This document shows, in pieces, positions 43,401-53,951 of a DNA stretch of 64,000 bases (position 1 is the stretch's first letter; every line of letters begins with the position of its first letter). Under the pieces are notes generated by a model. It saw only the letters and a program-made list of their open reading frames with translations. It made no database searches and was not told where the DNA came from. This DNA comes from Octopus vulgaris. Its lineage: Eukaryota. The position numbers were made by a program, and so were the translations under genes. The stretch is taken from positions 124,000,001 to 124,064,000 of the forward strand of contig OX597818.1 in NCBI GenBank assembly GCA_951406725.2. Reading direction: 5' to 3'.

Positions 43401-44967
43401 TCAAGTGGCATTCCAAGGGTGAGGGTCACATTCCATCATTGCTCAAAATTTTGTAACATATCACACACTGGGGGACTTCTGTGTCACCCTTTTGGGGAGG
43501 GACATGAATCCAAATCGAATATATTTGTCAAAATACTTCCATTTCTTTGTACTCATTGTGAATTATTTGATGTGCAGTGGACAACACAAATATATGAACA
43601 AAAGATAAGGCACGTGTAAGGTAATGTCAAGGCCCAAGTTAAAATGCTTGCCCAAGTTAGAATGCTTGGAGAGAAAAGTACTGAAAAAAATTTTAAGCAA
43701 AAAAAATTTGGAATAAAAGTTAAATTAAAAGAAAAGTTATGCGAAAAATTTCTACAATAAAATGTTGTATTTATTTGTATGAAAATCTAAAAAAAAATTT
43801 CTTTAAAAAAGAAAAGATTGTGCATATCTTTCAATTTCATCTAGTACTTTCTGAAATATTTAAATCTGAATTTTAGTTTAACATTTGGCTTTATATTATA
43901 ATTATTTTTCTTGCAAAAAGATTTGCTATATTTTAGCATGAATATTTAATGTTAAAAATTTTGATTTTATTGTTAAAATTTTTCATTTTTTCAATCTGTG
44001 TTTTAATTTTTTGGGGACTTTATTAAATTGAATGATAGTAGAGCCTTTTACCTAATTTTTGTTTTTTAATTCCTATTTTCAAATATATCATACTTCTCAT
44101 CTTGCTAAAATTTTTAAATAGTTTTCAATTTTCTAAATTAAGTTAATATTTCTTAGTATGTTACTATAATGGTTTGATAATGTTTCAGCATATCTCTTGA
44201 TTTTTAAGAATTACATTATTTCATATATATGAAAACTATGGATCAAACTTGTTTATAAGCTATTAACTGAAAAAGATGTTTGTCTTTCCATGGTAATAAT
44301 ATCTAAGATTTATACCAGCAGTCCTTAACATAAATCTTGTAACAACAAAATTACAAGATAAAGGCAAAAGTTAAAGCTACAATTCGGAATTAGGGAGGGT
44401 TTCAAGGGATATGAAGTGGGGTCAATAGGTACAGAAAAGAGTAAGTGGCACTAAGATAGTAGAATAAGAAAACTAAAAGTACAAGGTGATACTTTTAAAT
44501 TTTTCATAAACTTCTCATTATTTGACCATGCTCTCGTTAAGAGAATAACAAATATAATTAGAGAAATTCCTGCTTTTTCTCAAGGGCTCGCACCCCCTTG
44601 GAAATTAGTAACACTCTTGTGGAGCGTGCCCCTCAGGTTAAGTACCACTGTTTTAAGGGCTACTTTATTTCCACCCATAGCACCTTCTCATATGCATGAC
44701 TAACTGAAATTGTATACTCAGTGGTTTACACTAACCCTGAAAAAGGTAAAGCAAATTTTGTGAGGTTTGTTATGGAATACTTGAGTTTTAGTTGGGGAGG
44801 AGTTTCTGGATATCAGTAACCTAAGAGTATTTGATTTTCAAAGCTTCTTGGGCATAGATTCCAAATCTTTTATCCCTGGTAGGGATAAATTTTCAATTTT
44901 AATGAGGGAAAGGAAGACCTCACTAACCCCACCTCATCATTTACTTTCCCTTACTTCTGAGCTGACA

Positions 44968-45186
44968 GAGGTGGTGAGCTGGCAGAATTGTTAGCACGCC
45001 AGGTGAAATGCTTAGTGGTATTTCGCCTGTCTTCATATTCTTAGTTCAAATGCCGTCAGGGTTGACTTTGCCTTACATCCTTTCAGGGGCGATAAAATAG
45101 GTACTAGTTGAGTACTAGGGTCAATGTAACTGTCTATCCACCTGCCCAAAATTTAAGGCCTTGTGCCTTCAATAGAAAGGATTATT
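44968..45186 (+). mobile_element. Family B SINE with TSD ttctgagctgaca
   Basis: Head and core match, with a 13-bp direct repeat on both flanks. Confidence 0.8.
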
Positions 45187-45759
45187 TCTGAGCTGACAAG
45201 ATACTTTTAATTATACATGGTTATTATCAGTTCAAATATGCTTGGGACTTATTCAAACTCATAAGAAGGTCATTCACCATGATTTGTCACAGAGAAAATT
45301 TCTGGCTATAGGCAAATGGTGTAAATTACACCATTACACTATTTGTCAACAACGAGAAATTTTCTTTATGACAAAACACACTGAATGACTTTCCTACAAG
45401 TTTTAATATGCCACAAGCATATTTGAACTGGTAATAATCTTGTAGTTATACACATTACTGCTTAGCATTTTTAACTATTTGTTAAAGTGTATTCTAGTCA
45501 CACTCTCCATCTGTAAATGAGCTCATATTTCTGTACAACTAAATGTAAATTTACCTGTAGTTAGAAAAAACATGGGAGGAATGTAGCTGAATTTTGAAAG
45601 ATGGACATTTGCATTATACATGAGTGCATCATCAACCACCATTTTATTTTATAGGGAGTAAATATAGAAAGTTCCATATAGAATTTTCTTCATATGGTGA
45701 ACTAGAATATAAAGAGATGGTATACTGTTACATTTGAATGAAACCTTAAACAAACATAA

Positions 45760-46155
45760 AATTATTAACCATCTTACAAACAATAACTCTGAGTACCTTT
45801 TCAAACTCCACCCGTCTAACACCCGTGGACATGTTTACAAAGTCAGAAAACAGTACAGCTCCCATGACTTTAGGAAACATTTTTTCACGCTAAGAGTTGT
45901 TGAAGCATGGAATAAACTGCCAGCATCAGTTGTTAGTTGTCGGAGCACTGCATCCTTCAAAACTTCCATGCTTTCTGAGATTCGCCAACACTACACCTGA
46001 TTTTCTCCCCTCCATACACACACAAGCATGTATCTGACTCATACATTGTTTGCTTTCCAGACATTTGCACATTAATGCATATACTTTATACGCACTTTCT
46101 GACAAGTTGTGGTGCACCTGAGCACTGTATACAATGATTTCATTATTATTATATT
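45760..46155 (+). mobile_element. CR1-type LINE 3' end
   Basis: NTRGHVYKV...RKHFFTLRVVEAWNKLPASVV (CR1 ORF2 C-terminus), a 3' UTR and an (att)n tail. Confidence 0.85.
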
Positions 46156-46389
46156 TTATTTCAGTTCCAATTTCTGCTGCAATATTTTAAAACTTCCTCT
46201 TCTTCTTGTCCTGTACTTTTCCAGGATCAATTAATTAAGATTATTAATATTCATGCATTCTCATTTTTGCTGCCAGTTCAATATTTTTATAGGTAATGCA
46301 TATTACAGTAAAAAAAATAATTGTTATTGAAACAAAATTGCAAAAAACCAACTCTAGTTAGGACAAATTCTAGTAACTGTAGTGTAGAA

Positions 46390-47406
46390 ACCGAGAGGAA
46401 CATAATAGAGAGCATCTAGCATGTAACAAACTCCATCCACCTAAGTATCGAGGTAACTATTGATTACCCCACAAGCCACCCAAACAATAAACTCCCTGTC
46501 TTTGATACCGAACTTTGGTTAGAGACTGTGAACAACAAGTGTGCAGCTCTTCCACTCCTATTACATAAGCCCATAGGTTCTAAATATATTGTTCACAAGA
46601 ACTCAGCTTAGTCACACAATATGAAAATGAACATACTGATAGCAGACATAGTTAGGATAATGAACAATGTGTACCCCCTATGTGGACCCTATGATACAAG
46701 GAAATATGTACAGGACTTCATGCATTACATGCAATTCTCTGGATATGATCAGAAAGATAGGATTCGGGTAATCAGGAGAGCTAGAGAGAAGTCAGATGGC
46801 ATTATATGTAATGAAACCAGTGGTACCTGCCCTAGATACAGAGGTAAAGACTGGAATTGGGTACAGAGAGTGTATGACAAAGCAAGCAGGGTGAGCACAT
46901 GGTATAAGAGCTGACAAATATCAAGGAGTGATGTTTGTAGGGGCCACAGCCCATGGGGAACTAACCTGTAGATTTAGGAAAGCTCTGAAGGAGACCAAAC
47001 TCAACATTAAGATCGTTGAAAAGCTAGGGAGCTCCATCAGATCACAGTTATGTAGGACGTACCGCTTTTGAGAATACCCCATGCACCAATGAGAATTGCA
47101 TGGTATGTAAGATTAAACATTAGAAATGTAGTCTACAGCATAAGATGCATAGAGGGTGCTTGTAAAGACAAGAACATGACATACACTGGTGAGACATCTA
47201 GAAGTATTGCAGAAAGACTAAATGAACATCTGAGACAATATGATGACAGAAAACAGTCCTCCATACTCTACCAACATGGAGGCACACTGAGCCGACTTAA
47301 CATCCACATTTTATCGAAGCACCTGAAGGACCCATCACTCAGACAAATACAGAAGTACATCCTCATAAATAAAACATACTCTATACTAAATAGGAAATAC
47401 ACATAG
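46390..47406 (+). mobile_element. Penelope-like element, degraded: RT thumb plus C-terminal GIY-YIG endonuclease
   Basis: KLPVFDTELW (LPFLD-like) followed by NVVYSIRC...TYTGETSRSIAERLNEH, the typical PLE GIY-YIG motif, with stops and frameshifts. Confidence 0.85.
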
Positions 47407-47480
47407 AAGGTAGTGATACTCCTATATCCACAACATATACATACACGGGTAGATTTCTTAGTAGACTGTTATGTAGGCAA

Positions 47481-47548
<68 letters not shown>

Positions 47549-47555
47549 TTATATA

Positions 47556-47586
<31 letters not shown>

Positions 47587-47597
47587 CTTTATATATG

Positions 47598-47629
<32 letters not shown>

Positions 47630-47798
47630 ACATAAGGGACGTTAGCCATCCGAATGTGGCTAGGGACAGGGCAGGGCGGTGGGGGTGTAACTGATGCATT
47701 TAGCCCCAGGCGATCATCAACGTCACCAGAAGGGCTGATGCCATCACGGCGTCCTCTAGCCTGCAAAGGGAGATCATTCCCCGAAGAAGCGGATGCCA

Positions 47799-47843
47799 CA
47801 TACGGACCCAGGTTTCAAGGTGTTTGCCTATCGTCAACGTATG
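47799..47843 (-). ncRNA. Minimal type I hammerhead-like motif (inverted copy)
   Basis: Reverse complement of 48148-48192. Confidence 0.65.
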
Positions 47844-48147
47844 GCAGGCACCGCCCCTCGACGAACGACTCTCTGTGCAGGCTATCTATATAAAGATTTT
47901 CACAGTAAATACATTTACTGATGTAGAAAATCTGTTCGACAGTAACACCCCCACCGCCCTGCCCTGTCCCTAGCCACATTCGGATGGCTAACGTCCCTTA
48001 TGTTATCGAGCAGTTACTGTCTATACCTCGTTTAGAGAATTATTATTGCTGTCGAACAGATTTTCTACATCAGTAAATGTATTTACTGTGAAAATCTTTA
48101 TATAGATAGCCTGCACAGAGAGTCGTTCGTCAAGGGGCGGTGCCTGC

Positions 48148-48192
48148 CATACGTTGACGATAGGCAAACACCTTGAAACCTGGGTCCGTATG
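48148..48192 (+). ncRNA. Minimal type I hammerhead-like motif, C3U variant
   Basis: CAUACG-UUGACGA-u-AGG-caaaca-CCU-u-GAAAC-CUGG-GUC-CGUAUG. Stem I is a perfect 6 bp and predicted cleavage is after 48186. Confidence 0.65.
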
Positions 48193-48419
48193 TGGCATCC
48201 GCTTCTTCGGGGAATGATCTCCCTTTGCAGGCTAGAGGACGCCGTGATGGCGTCAGCCCTTCTGGTGACGTTGATGATCGCCTGGGGCTAAATGCATCAG
48301 TAACACCCCCACCACCCTGCCCTGTCCCTAGCCACATTCGGATGGCTAACGTCCCTTATGTTATCAAGCAGTTACTGTCTATACCTCGTTTAGAGAATTA
48401 TTATTGCTATATATATATT

Positions 48420-48454
<35 letters not shown>

Positions 48455-48907
48455 ATATATATATAAATACAAAATGGGACAAGAGCGCAAAACATTCAAA
48501 TAGACAATACAAAAAAACACTGCTGGGTCATTCGGAGCCTCTAATCTTCAGTCAAGAACCGGATCATCCTTGCAATTTTGGCTGATTAATCTTGAGATTG
48601 CTCCAATCTGGCCAGCCCCAAGGAAAAACTAAGCTGCGAGCATTAGATTTCTTGGAAAAAGGATTGAATGTATACGAAACAAGGACAGAAAAACGGACGA
48701 TGTTACACGAATATAAATACAAAAAACAAAAAATAATACGAATATAAATACAAAAAACAAAAAATAATACGAATATAAATACAAAAAAATAATACGAATA
48801 ATATATATCTATATATATTAGTAGGTAAATGGCTATGTAGCGAGAGATGTAAGTAGATAGATAGGTAGATAGGTACATAGCTAATCTAATAGAGACAAAC
48901 AAGCACA

Positions 48908-48957
<50 letters not shown>

Positions 48958-49705
48958 GAAACAGATGGAAACACATGACCATATACACACATGCACACTC
49001 CATGCACAAAGGCACATATGGAGACACATCCTTACTTAACAGATGCATGTACATAGTCACACAAACACATACACATAGACACGTTCAAATGTGCACATAC
49101 AAGGAGACAGAGGTACACACACAAATACACACACACACACACACGTGCACACACACACACATAAGCATGCACACAAACACTTGCGCATGCATGTACACAC
49201 ATAATCACATGAATATTCAAAATACATAATAAAAACATACACACATGCATACATGCATATAAACATACATACATATACACACATCTACCTACCTACATAC
49301 ATACATACATACATACATACATACATACATACATACATACATACATACATACACACACATCTACCTACCTACCTACATACATACATACATATGTGTATAC
49401 ACATGCATGCTGATATACACACATGCACACAAACAACCAAAAAGAACACAGCTCCAATAATGAACAGATTCAATAACTATTGAAGAGGTTACAAGAAGCA
49501 CTGAAAATGTTAGAAGAAAAATATATAAGTAAATGAGTGGAAACTGAACGTGTGAGTGTGTTAATTAATAAGGCATTAAAACAGAATGACACTCCTCAGA
49601 CACAACAAAGTAAATTTTATAAATTGTCGAAAAGTAAATCACATAGCAATGCCAATAAAAAATTCAAAACAAGACGGGTGAGAAAATGCCTTTAAAACGG
49701 CAGTG

Positions 49706-50014
49706 CTGTTGTTGTTTGTTCCTTCTCAAGCCATGCCTGACTAATAAGGGCCGTTTTCCCAGTTTCATTGGCGTATAGGGTCTCCACCTGGACAGGATCC
49801 GGTCCATCGCAGGTGAGCAGCTAGATGCAGGAGGAAACAGTGAGAGAAAGTTGTGGAAAAAGAGTCAGCAGAAGTTCACCATTACCTTCTACTGGAGCCG
49901 CATGGCGCTTACATATTTCGCTCATAAACACACACATCACCCGGTCTGAGATTCGAACCCACGATCCCTTGACTGCGAGTGTGCTGCTCTAACCACTAGG
50001 TCATATGCTTACAC
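49706..50014 (-). mobile_element. tRNA-derived SINE related to family D with a different tail
   Basis: Head tgacctagtggttagagcagcacactcg...gttcgaatctc, an (aac)n tail and flanking taaaac(g/a)gca. Confidence 0.7.
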
Positions 50015-50217
50015 ATAAAACAGCAATAGATGAATTAAATGGTGCAAATCAGAAAGCGATTCAAGAGATATGAATTGATCAGCTTGAAGCAAAAAAGGTC
50101 TGATCATGTTCACATTTTTGAGAAATACCTTCAGTACACTGAGTCTTTGGATCAGCATGGTGCTGGACAAATAAGTTTTAAATATTTCAAATGATCTAAA
50201 TATCTTTCTAAAACATA

Positions 50218-51022
50218 GGGCAGTGAGCTGGCAGAAGCGTTATCAACACTGGGTAAAATGCTTACTCTTTTACTCTTTTACTTGTTTCAGTCATTTGACT
50301 GCGGCCATGCTGGAGCACCGCCTTTAATCGAGCAACTCGACCCCGGGACTTATTCTTTTGTAAGCCCAGTACTTATTCTATCGGTCTCTTTTGCCGAACC
50401 GCTAAGTAACGGGGACATAAACACACCAGCATCGGTTGTCAAGCAATGCTAGGGGGACAAACACAGACACACAAACACACACATGCATATATATATATAT
50501 ATACATATATACGACGGGCTTCTTTCAGTTTCCATCTACCAAATCCACTCACAAGGCTTTGGGCGGCCCGAGGCTATAGTAGAAGACACTTGCCCAAGGT
50601 GCCATGCAGTGGGAGTGAACCCGGAACCATGTGGTTGGTAAACAAGCTACTTACCACACAGCCACTCCTGCTTAGTAGTATTTTGTCCGTCTTTATGTTT
50701 TACGTTCACATTCTGCCAAGTTTGACTCTGTCTCTTATCCTTTTGGGCTTGATAAGATGTAATCGACTTACTCCCGCCCCCAAAACTGCAGGCCTTGAGC
50801 CAAAATTTGAAATGAATATTTTTCTAAAACATAAGGCAGCAAAGTGGCAGAAGCATCAGCACAGTGGCCAAAGTGCTCAGTGGTATTTCATCCATCTTTA
50901 AGTTCGAATTCTGCAGAGAATTTAGGGGGTCAATAAAATAAGTACCAGTTGAACACTGGGGTTGATGTAATCGACTTGTCCCCTCTACTGAAACTGCTGG
51001 CCTCGTGTCAAAAATTCAAAAT
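50218..51022 (+). mobile_element. Two tandem family B SINEs, the first interrupted by an inverted family A SINE (50263-50670)
   Basis: The B head at 50218 resumes at 50670 and a second B head starts at 50833. The target aatatYtttctRaaacata occurs three times. Confidence 0.75.
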
Positions 51023-51263
51023 CAATATTTTTCTGAAACATAGCAGTTTGTCAGCCTCTGTTCAATTCGCACAATGTCTCAAAGGGACTCTTTCTCTCCA
51101 ATGAAGAACACTGCCACAATGTATCCTGGATGTGAAAGGAATATTAATGAAGGCTAAAAAGTGAGCCAAGTGGAAGGGAAAGTTTTTAATTGAGGGCAGG
51201 AACTAATTGCCAATCTGTAAGAATCTGCGAAGATGCATCTATAAACTTTCCTAGTTCACATTA

Positions 51264-53951
51264 TGTTGTAAAGTGGTCACTTGCCACTGTTGTATCTGTC
51301 TTTTGACAACAGTTGTCGCTCTGACAGATATTGTTATATTCCAAAGCCATCAATAGAATGGTTCTATCTGGCACTGTACGACCCTCAGTCATACAGTGTT
51401 ATCAGTGCTTTCATTCTAGAGATGCCTGGATGTCTCACATGGAACTCTTTTAGCATTCTCTTCTGTACTGTCTGTGGTATGATGACCCTCTGAGTGTACA
51501 TTAATACACCATCACATATAGAGTACACATTCACATCTTGGTGGTTCTTTACATCAGATCTTTCTTTATTTCCTTTTGTCGATCAAAGCTTTCTTTTTTT
51601 TCTCATTCGTAAATTTGGCATTTCTCGCATTTATTTTTATTTTTTCCAAAGTTACTGGTAGTTCACACATGATGTCCCTCATTACTTCCTTTTTGTTTCA
51701 TTTCATCAACCTCGTTCGATCACTTGACTGCTCCTTTTACACTATTGTACAAAGCGCCTATAAGTGTCTCCCATAAATTAAATCTCTCCATACATTCAGT
51801 GCCAAATAAATTCCTGAAATTTTTTCAACACATAAACATTCACTCTTGTGGTTCAACCTTTGAGCATTATATTACAAACGTGTTCACCCATGAAATATAA
51901 TTTTCTTCTTGTAAAACCATATGCTATTTTGTTTTAACATAATTTTGGTTTACCCATTTGTTCCCATGCTTTCATCATCATCATCATCATCATCGTTTAG
52001 CGTCCGTTTTCCATTATTTATGATTGTGATACCACTTCCTGTGTCTACTTGCATTCTGAACCTAGTATTTTCAATTCTCACATTCACAAATTTTCTGTCT
52101 GTTGTAGTCACAACTTTTCCTGCTGACAAACTATTTATTTTTTCTTGTTTGTTCCATTTTCTTATCATTCTAGTTTTGCAGTGCAATTTTATATGTCCTG
52201 TAAGCCCGAAGCAAAAACACTTTGCTCTTTTATACAGACAATTTTTTTTCAGGTGCATCCCACCACATATCATACATGGGTCTACATGCCAATATATTTT
52301 CTGTCTTTTCTGCAACGCTTTGTCTTCCAAATTTTTTGCACTGGTTTTATGTGGAAACACTCTTTCTGTTGAATTTTTTCTGTGTCATGCCTTAATTCTA
52401 ATATCCTGTCATACTCTTCCAACAGTTTCTGCAATATCAAATCCTGATTCATTTTCAGTTTTGATAGAATTTTCATTTGGATTTCTGCATCCCTTCTATT
52501 TGTCAATCCTTGAGCAAAAATCAAACACTTGAAAGAATCTGGAGTAAGCATATCTAGCCTAAATCTCTCACATTCTTTGTTCACTCTACCTGTATAAGTA
52601 GTGAAGTCTTCATCTTTGCTCTTTTCTGTTTAAGCATTTCCATGTGGTATCAAACAGTGAGATAATATCATCTGTGTCGGTGAAATTTATGTCAGACACT
52701 TTTTTTGGCAGTGTGAAGTTACTATATACTTCTCATGCTCTAATGTCTCTAGTTTTCTTAAAACTTGATGCCATTTCATATCATCTGTCCAATGCTTACA
52801 TTCCCTTTAAAAAATTTGCTGATATCTTCGAAAGTAAGCCTCAAAGGTTTCCTTCTACTGGGTAATATTTGAATTTGCTTAAGGAATTTGCAACATGGTC
52901 AGGTGAAAATGTTTTCTCTGGATGGGTTATCAACTTCATTAACTGTAACATTTGCTGCTACAATTCTTGTTGTTTTTGTTGTTTCTTGAATTATTGTTGT
53001 TGCTGGTTTTGTAATTCAACTATCCTATCCCAGCTAACAAGTCTTCCATATTTTACGATTTTCGTAAGTTTGCACAATAAGATTTTTGTTTCTTTTTTGT
53101 CGCGGTATTTAATTTTCCATGCGAATTAGTTTAAGCTCTCCGTATGAGTGTTTATTTTTCCTCACTCCACGTAAATTTGTTTTTCCTCATTGCCATTGTT
53201 GTAAAGTGGTCTTTTGCCACTGTTATATCTGTCTTTTGACGACAGTTGTCGCACTGACAGATATTGTTATACAAGGCAGCGAGCTGGCAGAAACGTTAGC
53301 ACGCCAGGCGAAATGCGTAGCCGTATTTCGTCTGCCGTTACTTTCTGAGTTCAAATTCCGCTGAGGTCGACTTTGCCTTTCATCCTTTTGGGGTCGATAA
53401 ATTAAGTACCAGTTACGCAATGGGGTTGATATAATCGACTTAATCCGTCTGTCTGTCCTTGTTTGTCCCCTCTATGTTTAGCCCCTTGTGGGTAGTAAAG
53501 AAACAGATATTGTTATATTCCAAAGTCATTGATAGGCGCAGGAGTGGCTGTGTGGTAAGTAGCTTGCTAACCAACCACATGGTTCCGGGTTCAGTCCCAC
53601 TGCGTAGCATCTTGGGCAAGTGTCTTCTGCTATAGCCCCGGGCCGACCAATGCCTTGTGAGTGGATTTCGTAGACGGAAACTGAAAGAAGCCTGTCGTAT
53701 ATATGCATATTTATATGTGTGTGTTTGTGTATCTGTGTTTGTCCCCCTAGCATTGCCTGACAACCGATGCTGGTGTGTTTACGTCCCTGTTACTTAGCGG
53801 TTTGGCAAAAGAGACCGATAGAATAAGTACTGGGCTTACAAAGAATAAGTCCTGGGGTCGATTTGCTCGACTGGGGGCGGTGCTCCAGTATGGCCGCAGT
53901 CAAATGAAACAAGTAAAGAGTATAGAATGGTTCTATTTGGCACTGTACAAC
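51264..53951 (-). mobile_element. Degraded Ty3/Gypsy element with short (~120 bp) LTRs, the 5' LTR interrupted by two SINEs
   Basis: LTR tgttgtaaagtggtc...ggcactgtac at 51264-51382 and 53197-53951. PBS-like tggcaatgagg, gag FKCLIFAQGL, zinc knuckles, protease VDTGS. Family B SINE 53273-53503 has TSD acagatattgttata, and a family A SINE lies at 53534-53922. Confidence 0.85.

Follow-up and report, generated by a model that had tools for sequence, protein, structure and literature searches.

Structure of the insertion block

The window, a stretch of 64,000 nucleotides from the Octopus vulgaris genome (assembly GCA_951406725.2, contig OX597818.1, positions 124,000,001 to 124,064,000), contains an insertion block of 782 bases that lies between two (TA)n tracts (47627-48408; all coordinates are window positions). 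The block is built from a non-coding repeat unit of 358 nt, named U (48051-48408), with the plus strand as the ribozyme sense. An inverted copy running from U314 to U1 (47627-47940) is followed by U248-358 (47940-48050) and then by U1-358 (48051-48408), in other words, arm A, which carries the tail and measures 469 nt (U248-358 plus U1-358), meets arm B, 314 nt long and tail-less (U314 to U1), head-to-head. Both ends of the block lie in (TA)n, where a target-site duplication cannot be told from the tract itself. The features of the locus are:

47476-47626, no strand: (TA)n-rich target tract left of the insertion, the same target as at most family ends
47627-47940, minus strand: arm B, tail-less and inverted, from U314 (at 47627) to U1 (at 47940), 98.7% identical to U1-314
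47799-47843, minus strand: second hammerhead copy, from stem I to stem I, with a predicted cut after 47805 (motif scan)
47940-47942, no strand: head-to-head arm junction with a CAG microhomology of 3 nt (alignment)
47940-48050, plus strand: upstream unit of arm A, 5'-truncated (U248-358), 98% identical to 48298-48408
48007-48050, plus strand: internal tail copy within the upstream unit of arm A
48051-48408, plus strand: complete unit U of arm A, 358 nt, non-coding, predicted structured RNA (fold z, consensus pairs)
48107-48235, plus strand: long rod in the predicted fold, spanning about U57-185 and tipped by the hammerhead
48140-48198, plus strand: type I hammerhead with a predicted cut after 48186 (motif and covariation)
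48365-48408, plus strand: tail of 44 nt, between sites B (U314) and A (U358)
48409-48470, no strand: (TA)n-rich target tract right of the insertion

The outer end of arm B (47627) would represent priming site B, and the tail is predicted to form a hairpin in which 48367-48372 pairs with 48403-48408, the base of this hairpin lying between sites A and B.

An earlier note on this DNA had described a module with a 358-bp period, and this period is found, with 47940-48050 recurring at 48298-48408 (98.2% over 111 nt). The order X-Y-X'-Z-Y'-X'-Z that it had proposed, including the inverted copy, is borne out, with X corresponding to U248-314, Y to U1-247, and Z to U315-358. The block is indeed GC- and CpG-rich (48.9% GC versus 35.9% in the window; CpG observed/expected ratio 0.80 versus 0.58), and its copies are young, with five differences among them as read from the sequence; four of these five are CpG transitions, and the copies were probably identical at the time of insertion. 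Two details had to be corrected. The junction had been assigned the 7-nt microhomology CAGTAAC, but aligning both source sequences leaves only the 3 nt CAG, and the tandem had been read on the minus strand, while its ribozyme-sense strand is the plus strand.

Copies of the unit in the genome

The genome that was searched comprises 2.8 Gb in 227 contigs. A first-look search with U, following up the suggestion that its copy number be determined, gave 1553 candidates, of which the best 40 are 90-100% identical. An exact 25-nt pattern, consisting of the tail end plus TA, matched 750 times against none for its reversed control, far more than chance would give; this pattern itself requires TA, and TA ends are also found in most loci that were collected by similarity. 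Loci retrieved with the 25-nt pattern belong mostly to a subfamily that is 81-95% alike to U, and a pattern of the U314 end plus TA, which is specific to the subfamily of the window, gave 43 matches. The window locus itself is therefore ordinary, being one of hundreds of insertions. A sister family, B, yielded 3022 candidates with copies about 90% alike among the best 40, and families A (that of U) and B are colinear over the whole unit and roughly 60-65% alike by eye. More distant relatives of the unit, at L069:25-264, L091:110-351, and L191:2293-2355, form further subfamilies, the last of which has U3-A8 in its core and CGCG as the palindrome of stem III.

Directly adjoining the module is a second short repeat that ends in (TA)n (48471-48815, minus strand). 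It has 4217 candidates that are 93-95% alike, is often found beside family A copies, begins with a hammerhead-like CTGAAGA without a clear GAAA, and contains a 31-nt triple tandem (48707-48799).

The hammerhead motif and RNA fold

The two opposed hammerheads that had been noted in the block are of type I (48148-48192 on the plus strand and 47843-47799 on the minus strand), and when both strands of the 64-kb window were scanned for the motif, they were the only two matches. Stem I is the perfect 6-bp helix described earlier (CATACG/CGTATG), extended by an outer 5 bp, and the GUC site ends at 48186. The remaining parts are the core TTGACGA (U3.G8), GAAA, a stem II of 3 bp on a U.U mismatch with the loop CAAACA, and a palindromic stem III, ACCTGGGT. 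An Rfam scan of 44000-52000 (E≤5) returned no match to a hammerhead model, only microsatellite-driven miRNA matches, and the hammerheads are therefore called from motif and covariation.

For the latter, we used 134 motif matches (70 distinct) in the collected loci, duplicates removed, found with a pattern that fixed GAAA, GU, and two As and left the 3-8 pair free. Covariation among genomic copies, which the earlier note had asked for in the stems, is present, core positions 3 and 8 being C-G in 53, U-A in 45, U.G in 36, and C-A in none of the 134. The 8 nt of stem III and loop 3 are self-complementary in 128 of them, with CTAG, CTGG, CATG, TCGA, and CGCG as loops and a predicted stem III self-duplex of -9.8 to -11.4 kcal/mol, and this palindrome suggests that the hammerhead would cleave as a dimer. 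When 18 rows were picked by hand from the 70, 97.7% of the cells paired, 10 of 19 pairs carried double changes, and none of 500 shuffles scored as high, although these rows are related (about four lineages) and the structure was drawn from the same rows, which overstates their independence. Core variants of the unit are U3-A8, U3.G8, and C4. For the complete unit, the fold z was -3.6 as a linear and -3.4 as a circular molecule, and 18 of 68 consensus pairs show double changes in an alignment that left out four rows, among them L169:2506-2867.

For PLEs (Penelope-like elements), PMC4209133 (in the text available) reports hammerheads in opposed pairs, the U3-A8 variant, cleavage as a dimer, and a helix III that is palindromic. 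In the axolotl, HHR_Amex2 has a U.U mismatch in stem II and a 2-bp stem III, and cleaves better as a dimer (PMC7229834). What points against a ribozyme step in the window copy is its U3.G8 wobble and weak stem II. Eight of nine Xenopus retrozyme dimers tested did not cleave, according to the text available of 10.64898/2026.07.22.740005, and cleavage was dispensable for insertion in the experiments described in PMC11167929. The window locus has one sense and one antisense hammerhead, and with a single sense-strand copy it falls outside the two-unit 'active' criterion of 10.64898/2026.07.22.740005, as worded in the text available; other loci are multi-unit (L203, L214, and L217).

A two-site insertion footprint

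To describe how copies are arranged, we took 68 of the 750 tail-(TA) loci, namely the first 72 in genome order minus four, all four of which have an arm starting near U314. A script classed 53 of the 68 as having an inverted arm that starts at U309-316, one as having a short arm of this kind, three as having an inverted arm at 233, 297, and 306, respectively, and 11 as having none. Among these 11, L202 does have a U316 arm and L214 runs beyond the examined stretch, which leaves 67 resolved loci. In 55 of these the opposite arm starts at approximately U314, in three at 233-306, and in nine there is no inverted arm; a start at U358 was seen in none (0/67), and no locus has two tails. Conversely, when 30 loci were picked by their U314 end, 20 faced an arm starting at U354-358 and 10 had no inverted partner arm. 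Copies across the family have fixed 3' ends and variable 5' truncation.

In PLEs that encode an endonuclease (EN+), the typical footprint consists of a partial tandem, a truncated copy lying inverted beside it, and, at one end, a tail of 30-40 bp (PMC8557442, in the parts available). A partial tandem with an adjacent inverted 5'-truncated copy, a one-sided tail, and a (TA)n target are all present at the window locus, and, judged by sequence, the layout of the block matches this published footprint. The same arrangement occurs in young autonomous PLEs of this genome (see below). All 11 inverted insertions of element P2 that were examined have one tailed and one tail-less arm, seven of them having been chosen as opposed pairs, and locus L085 of element P1 follows the same rule.

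The earlier note had attributed the inversion to a one-off template switch at a 7-nt microhomology. As the main mechanism this is disfavoured, since inversion is the normal insertion form of the family, with the inverted arm at a fixed second site (~U314) in 55/67 loci and the junctions located anywhere, mostly with 0-3 nt of microhomology. A fixed arm start combined with scattered junctions fits two priming events better than a switch by one cDNA. The other elements of that interpretation, a retrozyme-type unit, a hammerhead, and a Penelope-like link, are supported.

Proposed mechanism and RNA template

It is highly probable that the block is a PLE-mobilised retrozyme, and we are quite confident that insertion of a retrozyme-type unit into a TA microsatellite, leaving a PLE footprint, is the best explanation of the block as a whole. 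The reverse transcriptase (RT) and GIY-YIG endonuclease of a PLE likely act in trans on the unit. What has been observed is the unit, its copy family, the TA target, a pair of fixed arm starts separated by 44 nt, seamless tandem units, one of each arm start per inverted insertion, and a haplotype that is common to both arms. The proposed course of events would begin with transcription of tandem copies and cleavage by the hammerhead as a dimer via its palindromic stem III. Monomers would then be ligated to circles of about 360 nt, or uncleaved multimers would serve as template. The PLE protein would nick both strands of (TA)n and prime two cDNAs on the same RNA, one per site, at U358 (site A) and U314 (site B), the two sites flanking the tail hairpin. 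Both cDNAs would run back through the units, and their ends would be joined at 0-3 nt of microhomology. According to PMC11167929 (in the text available), a PLE protein for which a dimeric structure is predicted cleaves both strands and extends them, and in vitro two RT starts bound the tail. The full proposal, in which a dimeric RT-endonuclease primes once at each site flanking the tail hairpin while rolling around a ribozyme-made 360-nt circle, is put forward tentatively. If true, it would explain the tandem, inverted, one-sided-tail structure of PLEs, it would provide footprint evidence that animal retrozymes ride on PLE machinery, and the family would be a genome-scale record of PLE insertion.

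The earlier note had proposed a circular or multimeric RNA template, which is supported by arrays of six to seven near-identical units and by the scarcity of copying stops at the ribozyme cut site. Arms of this length occur in L202, L203, and L214. Across 22 loci with several segments, every one of the 31 variable columns that had at least four copies was a singleton (insertions relative to the reference were left uncounted), and L214 and L217, with seven and eight segments, respectively, showed no substitution. Of 94 passages across the cut site, 3 show a copying stop no more than 10 nt away from it, and because stops were this rare, without a pile-up of 5' ends at the cut, we rejected a cleaved linear monomer as the main template. 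The stop rate was higher in U137-250 (4-5 per 1000 nt) than in U57-136 (1.6 per 1000 nt), which predicted RNA structure would explain as well as cleavage. A search of sequencing runs for the unit turned up none recorded as RNA. Parts of the unit are covered by contigs from four runs whose RNA origin is a guess. Among them, two 390-nt contigs (X1 record 3 and X10 record 8) have a length that fits a closed 360-nt cycle, but tandem DNA gives the same, and we gave them no weight. A circle junction at the cut site has the same sequence as a tandem junction.

It is conceivable, if rather doubtful, that the same PLE insertion used an uncleaved linear multimer transcribed from a few long arrays, with no circle involved and a hammerhead that acts afterwards or never. 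The main substrate in PMC11167929 (in the text available) was uncleaved RNA, young arrays are homogeneous and identical units need no circle, and the coincident arm ends described below imply 5'-ended linear RNAs, at least for the short class. However, arms of at least six units are found in 3 of 68 loci, multi-unit loci are of differing haplotypes (the units of 16 such loci differ at 0-20 positions), and linear copying only shortens arrays, so that many long masters would be needed. Moreover, a unit length of 349-362 nt has been kept, with a covarying core, across families that are only about 60-65% alike. A ligated circle would most simply account for uniform long arrays in several haplotypes, and we moderately favour a circular template.

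Both arms share one haplotype

Haplotypes were compared over 35 polymorphic sites in 123 segments of the 40 best-scoring loci. Opposite arms of one locus agreed at 1123 of 1154 comparisons (97.3%), versus 73437 of 110081 (66.7%) between different loci, and gene conversion between arms could add to this sharing. The pattern can be read as two cDNAs from one RNA that were joined end to end. Junctions between arms fall anywhere in the unit, mostly with 0-3 nt of microhomology. In 13 of 63 junctions there were inserted or unresolved bases, and of the other 50, 21 had at least 2 nt of microhomology, whereas random joining would give 16% (p about 8e-6; the reference unit used here is not always that of the locus itself).

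The ends of the two arms are not independent of each other. In 17 of 53 arm pairs they lie within 15 nt of the same template position, with a permutation mean of 3.6 and none of 20000 permutations reaching 17. This excess comes from 25 loci in which neither arm reaches a full unit (16 versus 5.3), while the other 28 loci show none (3 versus 2.3 expected, modulo 358). Such coincident ends also fit a model in which, after a single priming, one cDNA folded back or switched onto itself and the endonuclease cut the copy at a fixed site. This model, which includes the template switch of the earlier note, would produce both the inverted arm and the one-sided tail. Nearly symmetric junctions in 16 of the 25 short loci fit this model, as does the window locus, where arm B is wholly contained within arm A, and self-priming with resolution by an endonuclease has been proposed before (PMC3846280 and PMC8557442, in the text available). 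Nevertheless, we consider this unlikely. Of 53 loci, 22 have a tail-less arm that outreaches its tailed counterpart by more than 25 nt and 12 show the opposite, no symmetry exists among the 28 longer loci even modulo 358, U314-end insertions without an inverted arm do occur (10/30), and the two RT starts seen in vitro bound the tail (PMC11167929, in the text available). Fold-back self-priming may account for the short loci with symmetric junctions, or for the window locus considered by itself. For the family, insertion by two primings is the probable route.

Neighbouring and autonomous Penelope-like elements

An old, broken PLE covering the RT thumb to GIY-YIG, with many stops and frameshifts, lies directly upstream of the module (46350-47476, plus strand) and resumes at ~48800-49580. 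Because its 3' region resumes past the module, the module sits inside the microsatellite of this old PLE, which hosts two later insertions. The element has 2393 first-look candidates, the best other copies being 79-84% alike, and it was rejected as the parent of U since there was no significant match to U in 19 of its other copies. Before it, the translation of 45780-45990 (plus strand) resembles what we take to be the C-terminal end of a decayed LINE-type ORF.

Two young autonomous PLEs that insert in (TA)n were found in the genome. The first, P1 (L081-L088 and L093-L096), has an intact 781-aa RT-GIY-YIG ORF, a 40-nt tail, repeats of about 93 nt in its 3' region, and a U3-A8 hammerhead-like motif. 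Its upstream ORF of 333-479 aa has no good Pfam match; an optional ORF1 is known from PLEs (PMC8557442, in the text available). The second, P2 (L089 and L242-L260), is 4270 nt long with a 775-aa RT-GIY-YIG ORF and a 464-aa upstream frame, and occurs as full tandems whose unit junction itself contains a (TA)n run. The best 150 of 13291 candidates in a search with the P2 RT were all 100% identical, and P2 is very active. By eye, the pLTRs of both P1 and P2 contain a hammerhead-like motif.

The earlier note had suggested looking for any PLE ORF attached to the unit. We searched with the Pfam GIY-YIG model (best 150 of 6136 candidates) and then ran a profile of families A and B over PLE loci, and in 65 PLE loci and 12 P2 loci this profile matched no pLTR joined to a PLE ORF. 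Five profile matches among the 65 loci were read as separate insertions, L089 being the one inspected base by base. No clear homology of U to P1 or P2 was seen. Likeness of the tail to that of P1 is weak (its score was reached by 5, 114, and 152 of 1000 shuffles), and a tail-like sequence on the strand opposite the P2 stop region received no score from the profile and was set aside.

A reading of U as an autonomous PLE's truncated pLTR, or as the terminus of an LTR or DIRS element, is very unlikely to hold. The decayed PLE ORF directly upstream could be taken in its favour, as could the reports that PLE pLTRs carry type I hammerheads and that truncated PLEs have opposed pairs 100-700 bp apart (PMC4209133, in the text available). 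However, the neighbouring PLE shows no significant match to U in 19 other copies and continues after the module, tandem arrays run from U358 into U1, neither a common flank nor a coding body was seen next to the 68 loci, and A and B align colinearly along the full unit. The variable 5' ends, tandem units, and lack of an internal region argue against an LTR or DIRS terminus, a possibility that the earlier note had raised. A satellite or MITE-like DNA repeat spread by DNA-level recombination, with the hammerhead as a relic, is highly improbable, since, even though tandem arrays exist and satellite-type expansion is discussed in 10.64898/2026.07.22.740005 (in the text available), the copies are dispersed with fixed 3' ends, variable 5' truncation, a one-sided tail, and a covarying core.

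Classification and relation to known elements

On testable features, we file the unit as a non-LTR retrozyme that would work like an EN+ PLE insertion. There is a type I hammerhead per unit (motif and covariation), the unit is non-coding, with its 358 nt in the range of 150-450 nt and its GC content of 48.9% below 50%, it forms arrays of six to seven, and its RNA is predicted to be stable and self-paired, as judged by the z values given above. An RT plus GIY-YIG ORF, as in an autonomous PLE, is absent, and the unit is classed as non-autonomous; absent, too, are the fixed terminal repeats around an internal coding region that mark LTR and DIRS elements.

The closest retrozymes are Rtz_353 of the axolotl, with HHR_Amex2, and the 350-390-nt repeats of mussels (PMC7229834, in the text available). 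With animal non-LTR retrozymes, the unit has in common a non-coding tandem unit of about 360 nt, a GC content below 50%, and a self-paired RNA, and with HHR_Amex2 the type I fold, a 2-bp stem III with a tetraloop, and the U.U mismatch at the base of stem II. It differs from them in occurring mostly as short dispersed insertions with an inverted arm, a 44-nt one-sided tail, and a (TA)n target, and in its core variants. In the main texts of PMC7229834 and 10.64898/2026.07.22.740005, the words 'inverted' and 'tail' are not used of retrozymes. Shared with the EN+ PLEs Penelope/Poseidon, Neptune, and Naiad are the partial tandem plus inverted 5'-truncated copy with a tail at one end, the microsatellite target, and a hammerhead upstream of the 3' ends (PMC8557442, PMC11167929, and PMC3846280, in the text available). 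In contrast to these, the unit has no RT or GIY-YIG ORF, its tail is 44 nt instead of 30-40, and homology to the pLTR of the two active PLEs here was not found. MRC1 and similar non-autonomous Chlamys elements are likewise non-coding, parasitise PLEs, and show both pLTR-like partial tandems and multimers in head-to-tail order (PMC8557442, in the text available). However, the MRC1 type resembles its partners at the 3' end, whereas the unit has no matched partner, and the Chlamys clade lacks canonical hammerheads according to the abstract, while the hammerhead is conserved in the unit.

PLEs have been named as strong candidates for moving animal retrozymes (PMC7229834), and animal retrozymes have been argued to be non-autonomous PLE sequences in a 2026 preprint (10.64898/2026.07.22.740005), so the class is already known. 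In the text available, the latter backs the link by co-occurrence and phylogeny and leaves the mechanism open, and PMC8557442 describes the formation of the tandem, inverted, and tail structures of PLEs as unresolved. As far as our searches reach, the unit family is new within the known retrozyme class, though it may already be catalogued. Footprint rules of this kind were not found stated for a retrozyme in the mostly open-access literature searched. The value added here lies in rules that can be counted, namely one tailed and one tail-less arm, the same haplotype in both, near-identical arrays, and no copying stop at the ribozyme site. What makes them countable is a 360-nt non-coding template with hundreds of young insertions, and they discriminate two-primer from fold-back models. 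The two currently active PLEs in the same genome are candidates for reconstitution.

In LINE-1 twin priming, primers from the two target strands use one RNA, which results in an inversion joined at microhomology. The unit family differs in that the second primer would use a fixed site 44 nt from the first, so that one and the same sequence is present in both arms. Resemblance to the L1 type is seen in L004, L006, and L030, which have internal inversions without a U314 start. Other minority structures are a 28-nt deletion exactly at the hammerhead cut region in L152 and a short extra inverted piece at the junction of L202.
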